Of a stretch of 12,009 nucleotides of DNA, positions 455 through 7,693 are shown piece after piece. The notes below the pieces were generated by a model, which did no database searches, was not told the DNA's origin, and worked only from the letters and a program-made list of their open reading frames with translations. Within the stretch, counting starts at the first letter, position 1. Each line of letters opens with the position of its first letter. Location of the stretch: IMG/VR virus record IMGVR_UViG_2537562173_000012; one strand, 5' to 3'. The stretch is from a virus (Duplodnaviria > Heunggongvirae > Uroviricota > Caudoviricetes). Position numbers and translations under genes: made by a program.

Positions 455-1831
455 TCATACGTCCGCCCCTTGTGCATATCGTCTGCCACGCGCAGCAGGC
501 GCATTTGATGCTGTGCAAATCTGTCTGGCTTCATCCTGGTCACATGCAACAAAGTGTCCGTTGCAGAACCGCTGGTAAACCGTACCAAGTGAGCCAAAAC
601 GGTTTTTCGTCACAATGATTTCAGCAAATGGCGCGGCGCTACTGTTCTCGTCATATACCGCTTCCCGATAGAGCATGATGATTGAGTCTGCGTCCTGTTC
701 AATGCTTCCTGAATCACGCAAATCTGCGTTTGTCGGGCGTTTGTTTGGTCGCTTCTCAACATCGCGTGAAAGCTGACTTAGGGAGATAACAGGCGTTTTC
801 AGGTCTTTCGCCATCGCCTTAAGGCTTCCTGAGATGTGGGCAATTGCGAGGTCGTTGCGATCTGCTTTCGGCTTCTCAATCAGGCCAAGATAATCCGCCA
901 TGATGAGTGACAGGTTTGGATTTTCCTGTTTGTGTCGTTCTGCGATTGAGCGTATTTCTTCGACCGATAACCGCGAGGCATCGACTACCCATACATCCAA
1001 ATCTGCAAGCTGACTCATGCCGTTAGCAACACGCGCCCAGCCTTCGTCATCCATCGATGCAGGATTTCGCAGTACGCTAACCGACATCCTCCCGGCGTTG
1101 GCAATGCTTCGCTCTGCAATCTGCAATGCGCTCATTTCCATTGAGAAAATCAATACCCCGCGCCGGACGTCAGAACCAGGAATAACGCGGCTTGCAACGC
1201 CTTCGGCAATCTTCAGCGCCAGCTCGGTTTTCCCCATACCAGGACGAGCAGCGATTATCACCAGGTCTTCTGCGTTCATCCCTCCGGTGATGGCATCAAG
1301 TTCTTCGATTCCGGTCTTCAGGGTATCGGACTCTTCTCCGTTCCTCAGACGCCTGTCAAGCGTGTCAGTGTAGTCAGTAATGATTTCCCCTAACCGTACA
1401 GGTTTAACCTCGTCACGGGGCTTTCTGATGGCTGAAAGACGCTTTACAAGCTCATCCATCGCCTGACTCGATGCGTCGATGGTTCCGCTCTGAATTGGTT
1501 CACGCATTTCATCCATGATTTCCAGCACCAGACGGCGGTGATAGTTATCCGCGACCATTCCGGCATATCCCTTCAGGTTTGCGGCACTCGGGCAGTTTTT
1601 GCTGGTCATCAGGATTGCGGTGAAATGCTCCTCTCCGCACGCCTCGGCAACCATCAGCGCGTCGATTAGGTTTCTGTTTCTCGCCTGCTTGCGAATAACC
1701 TCGAAGGCTTTCCGGTAGAGCGGAATTGAAAACGCTTCCGGCTCCAGCGTTGCAAGAACGTCACTGGCGGTTGGAGTTAATCCACCAATCAGCAGGCCAC
1801 CGATAACGCTCGCTTCGATATCCTGTCTCAT
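455..1831 (-). CDS. DnaB-family replicative DNA helicase (phage P22 gene 12-like)
   Basis: 458-aa ORF with a Walker A-like GMGKT motif and overall DnaB-like C-terminal ATPase layout. Start ATG overlaps the stop of the upstream O-like gene (ATGA). Same length as the P22 gp12 helicase as I remember it. Confidence 0.9.
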
Positions 1832-2658
1832 GCAATCCCCCTGTCTGCAAACTTCCCTTCCCGAACTCCCGTTAACGAGTCTTCTCTCAGCAGGTAATCA
1901 AAATCAGCCGTCCAGCCCGTGTCGTTGTCTCCGAAGTAAAACGGCTTGGCCTGATGCACAAACGCCCTGACATACGCTCTGAAACCGTCCACATTTGGCG
2001 TTTTCAGTTGTGGGATGATTTTCTTCAGGCGGCGTTTGCGCTTCTCGTTGACCGCAACAGCGTGTGGCAGTCTGTCACCGACTTCGGTGTTGTAGGCGTT
2101 CAGGAAGGATTCATAGTCGATTCGTTCTGCCTTGCGACGTTCAGGTTTAACCTGCCCATCGCCGCCCCCGTTAGGGGGTAAGGGGGTATTTGTATTTATT
2201 GTCTTTTGTATATTGTCTTTTGTGTTTGACTGATTCGGTAAATTGCTTTTTACCGATTTGGTGAAGGTTTGTTTTACCGAATTGGTAAATGTTTTACCGA
2301 ATCCGTTAACTTTCGTTTTCCACTCGGAAATGTTTGTATTCATACCAACTTGACGCCCCACCTGAATGAGAACTCCCATTCTGATAAGCTCGTTTTTGGC
2401 GGTAGAGCATTTGGTTGGTGCCATGCCAGTGAGTTCAGCGAACTGTTCGTTTCCGATCCAATCTATTTTTTTGTTGTAACCGTATGTCTTGCGCCACACA
2501 GCCATAACAATCAGTAACTGATGTGCAGTAAGCCCAGAAAGCATGGCGGCTTCTAACAGTGTGTTTGCAGTCCGAGTGTAGCCATCTTCGAGTTCTGCCA
2601 CGCGATGCTCCACGACCTCCAGTTGAGGCCTGTAATCAGCTAACTTAACGACGCCCAT
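1828..2658 (-). CDS. Replication initiator, lambda O / P22 gp18-like
   Basis: 276-aa ORF with AGGAG SD 6 nt before the ATG at 2656-2658. N-terminal region resembles lambda O (DGYTR..N.LLEA motif). The central linker is encoded by the iteron repeats, and a repeat-encoded [15 protein letters not shown] is visible in the protein. Confidence 0.85.
2173..2300. repeat. Origin of replication: iterons embedded in the O-like gene
   Basis: Tandem AGGGGGTA x2 (2173-2188), TATTGTCTTTTGT x2 (about 2197-2223), and three TTTTACCGA copies (2248-2256, 2272-2280, 2292-2300) interleaved with inverted TCGGTAAA / TTGGTAAA copies. This is the classic lambdoid ori arrangement inside the initiator gene. Confidence 0.7.
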
Positions 2659-2806
2659 GTTTCACTCCTGCTTTTGCTAGTCTGTAAACACCAACAAGGC
2701 GCTCTGCGAACGCCCTGTTATTTGCTGCGGCTACCACTAATCCCTCAGGTGAATCAGGGTGTCGAATCTCTTCTTTTTCCTGGTATTTCTTACGACGTTT
2801 TGTCAT
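2645..2806 (-). CDS. Hypothetical small basic protein between cII and the O-like gene
   Basis: 53-aa ORF ([53 protein letters not shown]) not in the ORF track because it is under 60 aa. AGGAG SD 5 nt before the ATG at 2804-2806; its 3' end overlaps the O-like start by 14 nt. Confidence 0.4.
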   Translation of the reverse strand: MTKRRKKYQEKEEIRHPDSPEGLVVAAANNRAFAERLVGVYRLAKAGVKHGRR

Positions 2807-2838
2807 AATGACTCCTGTGGATTGATCCAGTAATTCCC

Positions 2839-3135
2839 TCAGAATTGCATATCAATTTGCTCAGAATCCTCGGTGGCAGCCGGGGATTTTTTCTTTGTGA
2901 TTCCATCCAATGCATACTTAAAAGCCCTGCTAATCGGACTGATGTCTGATGCCATTCCGAAAGCACACAAGACCGAAGCAATAAATCTCCAGTCCGTTCT
3001 GCTTATCTTCGATTCATGACAGCCAATCATCTTTGCCAGACCGCGCTGGGTAAGCGTTGACAGGTTGATGAGTAAATCAGTTTCTGCGCGATCAATTTCT
3101 CGCTGTGTTGGCTTGCTGTAACTTGCTTGTGTCAT
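2839..3135 (-). CDS. cII: CII-like transcriptional activator
   Basis: 98-aa ORF with a helix-turn-helix region and a C-terminus KKSPAATEDSEQIDMQF that parallels lambda CII (RPAATERSEQIQMEF from memory). Sits immediately downstream of cro as in lambda, but the sequence is clearly diverged from lambda CII. Confidence 0.85.
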   Translation of the reverse strand: MTQASYSKPTQREIDRAETDLLINLSTLTQRGLAKMIGCHESKISRTDWRFIASVLCAFGMASDISPISRAFKYALDGITKKKSPAATEDSEQIDMQF

Positions 3136-3273: not shown

Positions 3274-3483
<210 letters not shown>

Positions 3484-3498
3484 TTAGTACATGCAACC

Positions 3499-3567
3499 AT
3501 TATCACCGCCAGAGGTAAAATAGTCAACACGCACGGTGTTAGATATTTATCCCTTGCGGTGATAGAT
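3499..3567. promoter_or_regulatory. OR1-OR2-OR3 operators with divergent PR (minus) and PRM (plus)
   Basis: OR1 TATCACCGCCAGAGGTA at 3501-3517, OR2 3525-3541 and OR3 3548-3564 are the lambda 17-bp operator sequences. PR -10 GATAAT and -35 TTGACT read on the minus strand (plus coordinates 3499-3504 and 3522-3527). PRM -35 TAGATA (3540-3545) and -10 TAGATT (3562-3567) give a leaderless cI mRNA starting at the ATG at 3575. Confidence 0.9.
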
Positions 3568-3571
3568 TTAA

Positions 3572-4288
<717 letters not shown>

Positions 4289-4295
4289 CACGTAA

Positions 4296-4733
4296 ATGAT
4301 TAAAGAACGTATTTCTTATATCATTCCGATTGCGATGGATGAAGGCAACCCAGTAACTCCAGTTCTTATCTATGAAATGGATAAAGACTCCCATGAAGTG
4401 GATCTATCATTTGGCGCTTTTTTTATCGGCCTTAAGGCTACAAAAAAATATTCCATAGGCATTGAGGTTTTCAATGCTCAAGAAATACCGATACCAATTG
4501 ACACAAAACTGTACTCCAACCATAAGTTTTTTACGGTAGCAGAAGCCAACGATGGAGAAACCATCGTATCAACTTCTATGAGAATTAACTTCCCAAGGGT
4601 GAAAATTATCAAGCCTGGGATATTCGAAGTTAGAGCATCACTGGTTAATCCTGATAAAGGCGAAGTAATTGATGTAAAAAGTTCGTTTTTTGACGTGAAG
4701 ATAACAGGATCAGTTCGCGATGAGTTTAGATAA
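4296..4733 (+). CDS. Hypothetical protein, first gene of a cassette in the rexA/rexB position
   Basis: 145-aa ORF starting 8 nt after the cI stop on the same strand, with no obvious SD (possible coupling to cI). It does not resemble RexA, no catalytic motif was recognised, and the stretch looks more A+T-rich than its neighbours by eye. Confidence 0.6.
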   Translation: MIKERISYIIPIAMDEGNPVTPVLIYEMDKDSHEVDLSFGAFFIGLKATKKYSIGIEVFNAQEIPIPIDTKLYSNHKFFTVAEANDGETIVSTSMRINFPRVKIIKPGIFEVRASLVNPDKGEVIDVKSSFFDVKITGSVRDEFR

Positions 4734-4839
4734 CAAGGTTGCTCAGCTTCGTCCAAATCAAAACATATCTCGCCCAATTGGACACTATTCCACTGATGAT
4801 GCATACTCACGGCATGGTGGAGGAAACGGCGGAGGTAAC

Positions 4840-5091
4840 ATGCTTGAGGCTAGAGTTGCAAAGCTAGAGTCTGATGTTGAATACATCAAGCGCGATCTCG
4901 CTGAAGTAAAGTCAGATATAAAATCTGTAGATTCTCGTCTGTCAGGTATTGAGACAAGCATTAGCTCAGCAAAAATCACCATCAAGGCATCTGCGGTCGT
5001 TGTCAGTTTCGTGTTCGCATTTTGCGCCTACATTTTTGGAAGTTATGTTTCCAAAATCCTTGATGCCTTAAACGGACTCGTTCTTAAGTAA
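4840..5091 (+). CDS. Hypothetical small membrane protein (coiled-coil plus C-terminal TM helix), second gene of the cassette
   Basis: GGAGG SD at 4831-4835 before the ATG at 4840 gives an 83-aa product. The same frame is open from ATG 4720, giving the 123-aa form in the ORF track. Heptad-like LEARVAKLESDVEYIKRDLAEVKSDIKSV is followed by a hydrophobic stretch AVVVSFVFAFCAYIFGSYV. A terminator follows directly. Confidence 0.55.
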   Translation: MLEARVAKLESDVEYIKRDLAEVKSDIKSVDSRLSGIETSISSAKITIKASAVVVSFVFAFCAYIFGSYVSKILDALNGLVLK

Positions 5092-5124: not shown

Positions 5125-5281
5125 ACCTCACGATCCCCTTCACCCAATAACACATAACCAATTGTATTTATTTGAAAATTAATAGATACAACTCACTAAA
5201 CATCGCAATTCAGATCTCTCGATCACCTCCCAAGCCACACACCCCTGCAAAAAAATAAATCTATATAAAAAACATACAGAT

Positions 5282-5592: not shown

Positions 5593-5976
5593 ATGACACG
5601 CAGAACTCAGTTCAAAGGCAATTCACGTTCTCGTCGTCGTGAGCGTTTAAAGGCAAAGGCATTAGCTAACGGCGTACTGGCCCGCGAAGAAGCAATAAGT
5701 TCAGAAGTATTACACCGCCCTACTCTAAGCAGAGCGCAGATTCAGGCTAAAGGTACTCACGAAACGCCTGAGCGCATAGAAGACGCTAAGCCAATTAAGT
5801 TCATAGCACAGGACGTGATCTGGCAACAGAAAGAATACAGACGCAATCTGGAGCGAGCGGCCATTGTGTACGCGAATGAGTTTGGACATAAGCAACCAGA
5901 AACTGGTGTATGTCTTCCAAACGTAGCCATTTACGCGGCAGGCTACCGGAAATCAAAACAACTGACGGCGAGGTAA
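5593..5976 (+). CDS. N: N-like transcription antitermination protein (P22 gp24-like arginine-rich motif)
   Basis: 127-aa ORF with AGGAGG SD 5 nt before the ATG. N-terminal arginine-rich motif NSRSRRRERLKAKALA. First gene downstream of PL and nutL. C-terminus VAIYAAGYRKSKQLTAR resembles what I recall of P22 N. Confidence 0.8.
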   Translation: MTRRTQFKGNSRSRRRERLKAKALANGVLAREEAISSEVLHRPTLSRAQIQAKGTHETPERIEDAKPIKFIAQDVIWQQKEYRRNLERAAIVYANEFGHKQPETGVCLPNVAIYAAGYRKSKQLTAR

Positions 5977-5978
5977 TT

Positions 5979-6371
5979 ATGGGTCAGGAAGAAAAATATG
6001 AGCTTAAAAAGCTCATTGGAGAAGACGCCATAGAAGAAATTGCAGCATTAACAACAGCTATAAAGAATATTAGGTATGCGCTAAATACGCTTATCTCCTC
6101 ATGCGACAAAAATAGCAGGGAATTTTTGATACTTGGCGCAGCTCTAGGAATAGTTGATGCGGCAACGCTTCACCTAATTACTCATGACGATATTCTTATT
6201 GAGCCGTATGAAACATTACTGCTTGTCAGGCAAAAAATGGCTGATGCCGCAGCAAATGGAGACCTTCAACTTTACATCGACTTAAGGAAAGTATTAAGGC
6301 GAATGGTCAGAACTGAAGGAGATATCCCCCTGAACGATGCTAAACAAGGCATACAAGCAAAGCTGGAATGA
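5979..6371 (+). CDS. Hypothetical protein (accessory gene downstream of N)
   Basis: 131-aa ORF from the ATG at 5979, 2 nt after the N stop, with a GAGGT SD. The ORF track shows an upstream TTG-initiated extension that I consider unlikely. Confidence 0.6.
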   Translation: MGQEEKYELKKLIGEDAIEEIAALTTAIKNIRYALNTLISSCDKNSREFLILGAALGIVDAATLHLITHDDILIEPYETLLLVRQKMADAAANGDLQLYIDLRKVLRRMVRTEGDIPLNDAKQGIQAKLE

Positions 6372-6592: not shown

Positions 6593-6724
6593 GCGCCTAT
6601 AGCAGATTTACGAGTCTGCTATGTGAGCAATGTCGCTCGTAACTAAACAGGAGCCGACTTGTTCTGATTATTGGAAATCTTCTTTGCCCTCCAGTGTGAG
6701 GGCGATTTTTTTAACGGAGGAAAT

Positions 6725-7693
6725 ATGAGTGAAGTAACAGATTTAGTTGTTATTGAAAAAGCAAATGCAATGACTGTATTTCAGTCTGCCGACCAGATTG
6801 AAGAAATCCTTCAAAAGGTTGAACGTGAAGTTATGTCCTTTGTTCCTGATATCACAACGGCAAGGGGCAGAAAGGAGATCGCTTCTCTGGCGTATAAAGT
6901 TGCGCAGACGAAAACATATCTCGATGGTCTTGGCAAAGACCTTGTTGCTGAACTGAAGGAAATTCCAAAGCTAATTGATGCTAACCGCAAGACAGTGCGT
7001 GATCGCCTTGATGAGCTGAAAGCCAAGGCGCGCCAGCCTCTTACTGATTATGAGGAGGAGCAGGCACGGATTAAAGCCGAAGAAGAAGCTAAGGCAGCAG
7101 CCGAAGCTCTCGCAAAGCAAATTGAGTCTGACCATGAAATAGCGATTTTGATGGATCGCGAATTTGACCGCCAAAGAGAAGAGGCAAGACTCAAAGCGGA
7201 GCAGGAAAAGCGAGAGCATGAAGAACGCTTAAAAAGAGAAGCTGAAGAGAAAGCCAGAGCAGAAGCCGAAGCAAAGGCAAAAGCCGAAATTGAAGCAGCA
7301 GCAAGGCGAGAAGCAGAAGCTAAGGCCGCAGCGGAACGTGCAGAGCGTGAACGCATTGAAGCCGAGCAACGAGCACAGCGCGAAGCAAAAGAGGCAGCAG
7401 AACGAGCTGAAAGAGAAAAGCAGGCAGCAATTGAAGCAGAACGCCGAAAAGCACAGGAGGAGGCAGAACGAATCCGGCGCGAGGCTGAAGCAAAAGAGCA
7501 AGCCAGAATAGCAGAAGAAAAAAGAATCAAGGACGAAGAAGAGCGTAGAGCAAAGGATAAAGCTCACCGGAAAGAAGTAAATAACAAAATACTTGCTGAC
7601 CTTATCAAGGTTGGTGCATCAGAAGATGTTGCTAAAAATATCATAACAGCCATCGTAAAAGGCGAAGTATTCGCAACAAAAATAACCTACTAA
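6725..7693 (+). CDS. Hypothetical protein with a long E/K/A/R-rich coiled-coil central domain (TolA domain II-like composition)
   Basis: GGAGG SD 5 nt before the ATG at 6725; 322 aa. Residues about 110-290 are almost entirely Glu, Lys, Ala and Arg in EAEAKAKAE-type repeats, flanked by ordinary N- and C-terminal domains. Confidence 0.75.
   Translation: MSEVTDLVVIEKANAMTVFQSADQIEEILQKVEREVMSFVPDITTARGRKEIASLAYKVAQTKTYLDGLGKDLVAELKEIPKLIDANRKTVRDRLDELKAKARQPLTDYEEEQARIKAEEEAKAAAEALAKQIESDHEIAILMDREFDRQREEARLKAEQEKREHEERLKREAEEKARAEAEAKAKAEIEAAARREAEAKAAAERAERERIEAEQRAQREAKEAAERAEREKQAAIEAERRKAQEEAERIRREAEAKEQARIAEEKRIKDEEERRAKDKAHRKEVNNKILADLIKVGASEDVAKNIITAIVKGEVFATKITY

Follow-up and report, generated by a model that had tools for sequence, protein, structure and literature searches.

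Gene organization of the locus

The window analyzed here is a whole stretch of 12,009 nucleotides (12 kb), which overall combines CUS-3, HK97 and HK544-like sequence in a mosaic. An O-like replication initiator gene of 831 nt, recognized from its open reading frame and translation (276 aa), is located at 1828..2658 on the minus strand. The product matched the Pfam family PF04492 (Phage_rep_O) over aa 19-113 with E = 1.1e-36, and the profile was covered end to end. From the coordinates of this match, the predicted N-terminal origin-binding domain is encoded by 2320..2604 (minus strand). The gene for a DnaB-like replicative helicase of 458 aa (455..1831, minus strand; Pfam DnaB_C, 9.6e-78; DnaB N-terminal domain, 3.9e-13) is immediately downstream, and its start overlaps the stop of the initiator gene. 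Counterparts of this gene in HK97 and BTP1 are annotated as P/replicative DNA helicase. The DnaB-like helicase is presumed to be the partner of the C-terminal domain of the initiator.

Upstream of the initiator gene in the direction of transcription are a 53-aa ORF, cII, the Cro gene (3274-3474, minus strand) and a divergent cI-type repressor gene (3575-4288, plus strand), in this order. We identify the locus as the early-right operon of a lambdoid prophage. A pR-like sigma-70 promoter (TTGACT-17-GATAAT) was found at 3499-3527 (minus strand) between the Cro and cI-type repressor genes. The 53-aa ORF (2645-2806, minus strand), positioned between cII and the initiator gene with a 14-nt overlap into the start of the latter, belongs to phrog_1331, the HK97 gp53/P22 orf48 family; lambda has no such gene. 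The conserved 33-mer of the oop promoter and 5′ end, ACTGGATCAATCCACAGGAGTCATTATGACAAA, was located at 2799-2831 (minus strand) with one mismatch against the published consensus, and a terminator-like hairpin with a T-run was located at 2863-2890 (plus strand). Together, the oop-type 33-mer and the hairpin (2799-2895) are suggestive of an antisense RNA of the OOP type, facing the end of cII. Rfam gave no family for this OOP-like region.

Among 5426 complete E. coli genomes, 34 have prophages with the initiator gene at 98-99% identity (at least 80% coverage), and these prophage copies carry the plain annotation 'replication protein'.

Iterons, A-rich tract and G+C-rich element within the initiator gene

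The original prediction described three nested families of repeats in the middle of the O-like gene and took them for replication-origin iterons. The repeats were present as listed: AGGGGGTA at 2173 and 2181, TATTGTCTTTTGT at 2197 and 2211, TTTTACCGA at 2248, 2272 and 2292, TCGGTAAA at 2235, and TTGGTAAA at 2282. They are inside the initiator gene, with the motifs at nt 350-486 of its 831 nt. The elements are adjacent rather than nested, and the actual repeat unit is a 17-bp dyad-symmetric iteron, TTTACC-N5-GGTAAA (6-5-6), in four copies. What had been described as a direct repeat in three copies with inverted partners corresponds to the arms of these sites, and that description missed a fourth, more degenerate site, TTGACTGATTCGGTAAA.

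All four iterons were assigned to the minus strand and are given here as sense sequences. Iteron 1, TTAACGGATTCGGTAAA, is located at 2293..2309 (gene nt 350-366), is in codon phase 1 and encodes VNGFGK. Iteron 2, TTTACCAATTCGGTAAA, is at 2273..2289 (gene nt 370-386) in codon phase 0, encoding FTNSVK, and iteron 3, TTCACCAAATCGGTAAA, is at 2249..2265 (gene nt 394-410), also in codon phase 0, encoding FTKSVK. Iteron 4, TTTACCGAATCAGTCAA, is at 2226..2242 (gene nt 417-433) in codon phase 2 and encodes NLPNQSN. The start-to-start spacing is 20, 24 and 23 bp, roughly two helical turns. The dyad symmetry is best in iteron 2 and imperfect in iterons 1 and 4. The G+C content of the region from iteron 1 to iteron 4 (gene nt 350-433) is 0.35. 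When the 12 kb was searched with the 17-mer TTTACCGAWTYGGTAAA allowing up to three mismatches, eight matches were obtained, namely the four sites on both strands, and none elsewhere. As 0.07 matches were expected and none of 200 shuffles attained eight, an origin of the iterons by chance was ruled out.

The origin elements sit within the initiator gene itself. The iterons begin 11 nt past the end of the Pfam match and are followed consecutively on the sense strand by an A-rich tract and a G+C-rich inverted repeat. The A-rich tract, ACACAAAAGACAATATACAAAAGACAATAAATACAAATA on the sense strand, is at 2189..2225 (minus strand; GC 0.22) and contains two copies of the direct repeat ACAAAAGACAATA. 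It is about 37-39 nt long, starts at gene nt 435 and adjoins the last iteron; its sense strand has 25 A versus 5 T in 38 nt. Among 37-nt windows it ranked within the lowest 0.6% for GC and within the seven most skewed in A/T between the strands. The G+C content falls below that of the tract in the intergenic DNA at ~5150-5250, so the tract is not the least stable part of the window. The A-rich tract is presumed to be the unwinding region.

The G+C-rich right-hand element (2160..2188, minus strand; GC 0.72) encodes PLPPNGGG and contains two copies of TACCCCCT, which are the two copies of AGGGGGTA in the original prediction and correspond to a TRF repeat call at 2173-2188. Within the element, the inverted repeat CCCCC-TAAC-GGGGG is located at 2165-2178. 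Its arms are just 5 bp, and its sequence is unrelated to the palindrome of lambda. The counterpart of this inverted repeat in phiEt88 is longer, CCCCCCTAGGGGGG.

Inverted repeats of this kind could also form an RNA hairpin, a terminator or another regulatory RNA structure instead of protein-binding sites. A consensus scan indeed called 2249-2289 (plus strand) terminator-like, with a T-rich tail after a stem of 18 pairs. This stem, however, is formed by iterons 3 and 2, contains only four G-C pairs and is antisense to the gene, and terminator-like sites in the window were not in excess (3 versus 2.3 in shuffles). The terminator at 2249-2289 was therefore rejected as a by-product of the pairing between iterons 2 and 3. 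An RNA structure would also leave the four phased palindromes and the A-rich tract shared with lambda unexplained, and it gained no support from Rfam, since a scan of the whole window returned no family at the gathering score. We consider this explanation extremely improbable.

An equally improbable arrangement is a plasmid-style iteron origin, fired jointly by a Rep protein and host DnaA. Repeated sites of about 20 bp beside an A+T-rich tract are what such an origin would look like, but the sites here are palindromic and are not same-sense direct repeats, and the initiator belongs to Phage_rep_O and not to a plasmid Rep family. The DnaA box TTWTNCACA was absent from the 12-kb window (0 versus 1.24 expected), and on this ground a DnaA-dependent plasmid-type origin was rejected.

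We compared variation at the DNA and peptide levels among close relatives of the initiator. Eighty IMG/VR loci encoding such relatives gave 41 distinct P22-type sequences. These sequences are related and recombining, so the following p-values are indicative only: iteron arms varied at 4 of 48 positions versus 14 of 36 positions in the centres of and between the iterons (Fisher p = 0.001), and third codon positions varied most in the N-terminal domain (66%), less in the arms (25%, p = 0.002) and least in the A-rich tract (8%, p = 6e-5). Iteron 4 was invariant in all 41 sequences, and 2 of 39 positions varied in the A-rich tract. The near-invariance of the tract could partly come from recombinational spread among modules.

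These results bear on whether the repeats have any role as DNA, or only encode a repetitive, low-complexity linker between two protein domains. The region does encode a repetitive peptide and a Pro/Gly-rich run, and iterons 2 and 3, being 24 nt apart, yield the six-residue repeat FTNSVK/FTKSVK. This peptide repeat comes from these two iterons only; the codon phase is different in iterons 1 and 4, and the four sites (phases 1, 0, 0 and 2) specify different peptides. Each unit is palindromic, which is meaningless for a peptide, and homologues hold the number, spacing and dyad symmetry of the sites while the sequence changes. Synonymous sites moreover change much less in the arms and the A-rich tract than they do in the N-terminal domain. 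Lambda O stays active in trans when in-frame deletions are made in the AT-rich tract of its gene (PMC6022878), so the peptide encoded there is dispensable and the DNA is the cis-acting origin. From the mixed codon phases, the low third-position variation and the lambda deletions, we conclude that the iterons and the A-rich tract are, by these comparisons, constrained mainly as DNA and that the encoded peptide is a tolerant interdomain linker. A purely peptide-coding role is thus very unlikely. The original prediction was right that the repeats encode the linker peptide and the PPNGGGDG run; this coding role is secondary, as the DNA rather than the peptide is conserved.

Relationship to the P22, lambda and HK97 origins

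The replication origin of P22 was reportedly located in gene 18 by Backhaus and Petri in 1984. The corresponding GenBank record (M10074) carries no origin feature. In the P22 RefSeq entry (NC_002371), gene 18 contains an annotated rep_origin at 32840-32984, whose note reads 'similar to phage lambda', and it seems that the P22-type pairing of initiator and iterons was assigned by likeness to lambda alone. The annotated origin aligned without gaps to 2309-2165 of the window; it begins with the first base of iteron 1 and closes with the last base of the CCCCC/GGGGG repeat. The identity between the window and P22 was 94.8% over 174 nt (2157-2330), and about 95% over the entire annotated origin. 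Because the P22 annotation maps gap-free in this way, the element, judged by alignment, is the already known P22 gene-18 type origin. Together with the Phage_rep_O assignment of the gene, this bears out the earlier view that the repeats are replication-origin iterons. A genome analysis had already described four repeats of ~20 bp in P22 gene 18 that are unlike those of lambda (PMC8022706).

All eight iteron arms match P22 or differ by at most one base. The A-rich tract is identical, the C-run/G-run element is common to both, the N-terminal domain is 95% identical to that of gp18, and a DnaB-like helicase gene of the gene 12 type is directly downstream in both. The differences are the centre of iteron 2 (AGATC in P22, AATTC in the window), two inter-iteron bases, and the first ~20 codons and C-terminal half of the initiator, which are HK97-type in the window (100% identity to HK97, 59% to P22). 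Salmonella phage BTP1 has the same combination of N-terminal and C-terminal parts as the window, save for the first ~10 codons.

A homologous origin might also be a decaying relic, no longer functional, within a defective prophage. The context from which the window derives is unknown, the gene occurs in prophages of only the 34 E. coli genomes mentioned above, and iterons 1 and 4 depart from the palindrome. These same deviations are, however, shared by the replication-competent phages P22 and BTP1, iteron 4 did not vary among the 41 sequences, and the initiator and helicase ORFs are both intact. A relic is therefore very unlikely, and an intact P22-type origin remains the preferred reading.

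The architecture closely resembles that of lambda. The lambda iterons start at 39034, 39054, 39078 and 39101, corresponding to gene O nt 349, 369, 393 and 416, and therefore have the same 20/24/23 spacing; ITN1-4 occupy nt 349-433 compared with nt 350-433 in the window, with the same 6-5-6 geometry. In both genes the A-rich tract opens at nt 435 with (A)CACAAAAGACA, and ACACAAAAGACA is invariant. Both initiators have a Phage_rep_O N-terminal domain. In contrast, the arms are TCCCTC/GAGGGA in lambda and TTTACC/GGTAAA in the window, and the N-terminal domains are 46% identical, a level at which it was reasonable for the original prediction to propose an initiator specificity distinct from that of lambda; the comparison of the arms agrees with it. 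The right-hand element is TCGTCAGAGAATTCTGGCGA in lambda and CCCCC..GGGGG in the window. The C-terminal domain is unrelated (16% identity), and the partner is the loader P in lambda, whereas in the window it would be the phage DnaB-like helicase. The Stx phages 933W and P27 also have intragenic iteron origins bound by the O protein (PMC7466680). Their iterons are of the lambda type in six copies and they use a P-type loader, whereas the window has four iterons.

HK97 (gene O, gp54) shows a different combination. Its A-rich tract, G+C-rich element and C-terminal domain are identical to those of the window, the helicase type is shared, and the number and spacing of the iterons are the same. The iteron arms are TTAGCY/RGCTAA, however, and the N-terminal domain is 40% identical to that of the window. 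By these features, HK97 and the window are predicted to have different origin specificities on a shared backbone.

We then compared identity in 30-nt windows along the initiator gene. Gene nt 1 to ~47-60 and nt 438-831 were ~100% HK97-like, while nt ~50-78 to 437 were 87-97% P22/BTP1-like and 37-73% identical to HK97. The P22-type segment spans the DNA-binding domain and all four iterons. The left joint is in the conserved LEVVEHRVA segment, and the right joint is exactly at the boundary between iteron 4 and the A-rich tract, as the sequence is HK97-like again from nt 438. By this profile, the DNA-binding domain and the iterons moved together, as one cassette, into an HK97-type backbone. The window copy is a tidy natural case of a known principle, in which the DNA-binding domain of the initiator and the iterons co-travel, with the A-rich tract as the recombination joint.

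Co-variation of iterons and initiator domains, and the predicted initiation pathway

To see how repeats are conserved in homologous initiator genes, we compared 18 O-like genes from phages of Escherichia, Salmonella, Erwinia, Klebsiella, Proteus, Enterobacter, Burkholderia and Mannheimia. The repeats were kept at the same place, as the original reading of them as iterons had implied: 17 of the 18 genes contain four to six repeated sites of ~17 bp directly past the N-terminal domain, mostly dyad-symmetric. The atypical gene is that of Enterobacter MII_001, with three non-palindromic repeats at 22-nt spacing and no CACAAAAGA tract. Genes with four sites have a spacing of 20/24/23 or are at most two bases off. 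Six iterons each were found in BP-4795 and Burkholderia KL4, and also in Salmonella SPN3UB, where they have a 22-nt spacing and the CACAAAAGA tract is missing. This tract follows the sites in 16 of the 18 genes and starts at nt 435 in both the window and lambda.

Iteron sequence, as far as these 18 genes show, tracks the N-terminal domain. The same iterons were found within groups of high N-terminal identity: the window, P22 and BTP1 (95%); lambda, g341c and BP-4795 (98-99%); 720R6 and Proteus V3 (ProtV3; 77%); and PhiR47_2 and RCIP0098 (87%). HK97 and the window, with 40% identity in the N-terminal domain and 100% in the C-terminal half, have different iterons (TTAGCY..RGCTAA in HK97). The element past the A-rich tract, by the same comparison, tracks the C-terminal domain and the downstream helicase partner. 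The C-run/G-run element was found after the tract in HK97, BTP1, P22, ProtV3, phiEt88, Ehr49 and Klebsiella RCIP0098, and a DnaB-like helicase is annotated downstream in five of these seven (HK97, BTP1, P22, ProtV3 and Ehr49); the downstream gene of RCIP0098 is annotated as hypothetical, and that of phiEt88 is outside the stretch compared. Other palindromes stand at this place in the remaining types: TCGTCCGAGAATTCTGGCGA in genes accompanied by lambda P, and GTCCGAAAGCGTTCGGAC in genes accompanied by a primase-helicase.

Taken together, the element is very probably a theta-type replication origin of the P22 gene-18 type, located inside the initiator gene of a lambdoid (P22/HK97-like) prophage. 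This assignment draws on the anatomy of the region, its homology to the annotated P22 origin, the DNA-level constraint and the co-variation of iterons with the N-terminal domain, and from these we infer initiator binding, melting and helicase recruitment.

In the proposed pathway, rightward early transcription would supply the 276-aa initiator. Dimers of its N-terminal domain would bind the four iterons to form a wrapped nucleoprotein complex, an 'O-some', and the stress exerted by this complex on supercoiled DNA would melt the adjoining A-rich tract. In lambda, O binds as a dimer per iteron, forms the O-some and destabilizes the AT-rich region, with its N-terminal part binding DNA and its C-terminal part binding P (PMC6022878; PMC7466680). 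A sequence search of the PDB with the initiator gave no match among solved structures, so the dimeric, winged-helix mode of binding is one that we infer. The C-terminal domain of the initiator would then recruit the phage's own DnaB-like helicase, in place of lambda's P and host DnaB; the use of this DnaB homologue is suggested by the gene order and by the co-variation of the C-terminal domain with the partner. Host primase and polymerase would take over after helicase loading. A lambda/P22 hybrid phage in which orf48-18-12 comes from P22 is viable and is not affected by an inhibition directed at the lambda ori (PMC3349717), and this escape fits an origin inside the P22 orf48-18-12 module.

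The value of the assignment is mostly correct annotation: the prophage origin is located, and the specificity of the initiator is predicted to be of the P22 type and not of the lambda or HK97 type. From this specificity it can be predicted whether replication is compatible or incompatible with that of lambdoid phages in the same host and of plasmids derived from them. Mildly new are the quantitative DNA-level constraint, the clean boundaries of the cassette, and iterons of the PhiR47_2 type with a centre two bases wider.

The latter were found as five iterons, TTTACC-CGAATCA-GGTAAA, in E. coli phage PhiR47_2 (~nt 1015-1170) and, at the corresponding place, in Klebsiella phage RCIP0098. They have the outer arms of the window's iterons with a centre of 7 nt instead of 5 (6-7-6 versus 6-5-6), and the N-terminal domains of the two phages are 61-63% identical to that of the window. 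It is conceivable, though we regard it as doubtful, that half-site spacing rather than new base contacts resets origin specificity, with the cassette of DNA-binding domain and iterons as the unit of change. This reading holds if initiators of the PhiR47_2 type and the window type do not cross-react.

Two further features were observed elsewhere in the window. Three ORFs without an assigned function (145, 123 and 153 aa; phrog_5893, phrog_6136 and phrog_7374) are located at 4296-5091 and 5910-6371 (plus strand), near the repressor and N-like genes. Genes for exclusion or defence are common at such positions in lambdoid phages. Tandem repeats, consisting of a 15-nt unit in two copies and a degenerate 6-nt unit, AGAAGC, in 14 copies, were found at 7193-7320 in an ORF at 6671-7693 (plus strand). 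The product of this ORF is 340 aa long and belongs to phrog_1376/21365, of unknown function; its counterpart is named 'TolA' in one mEp213 record.
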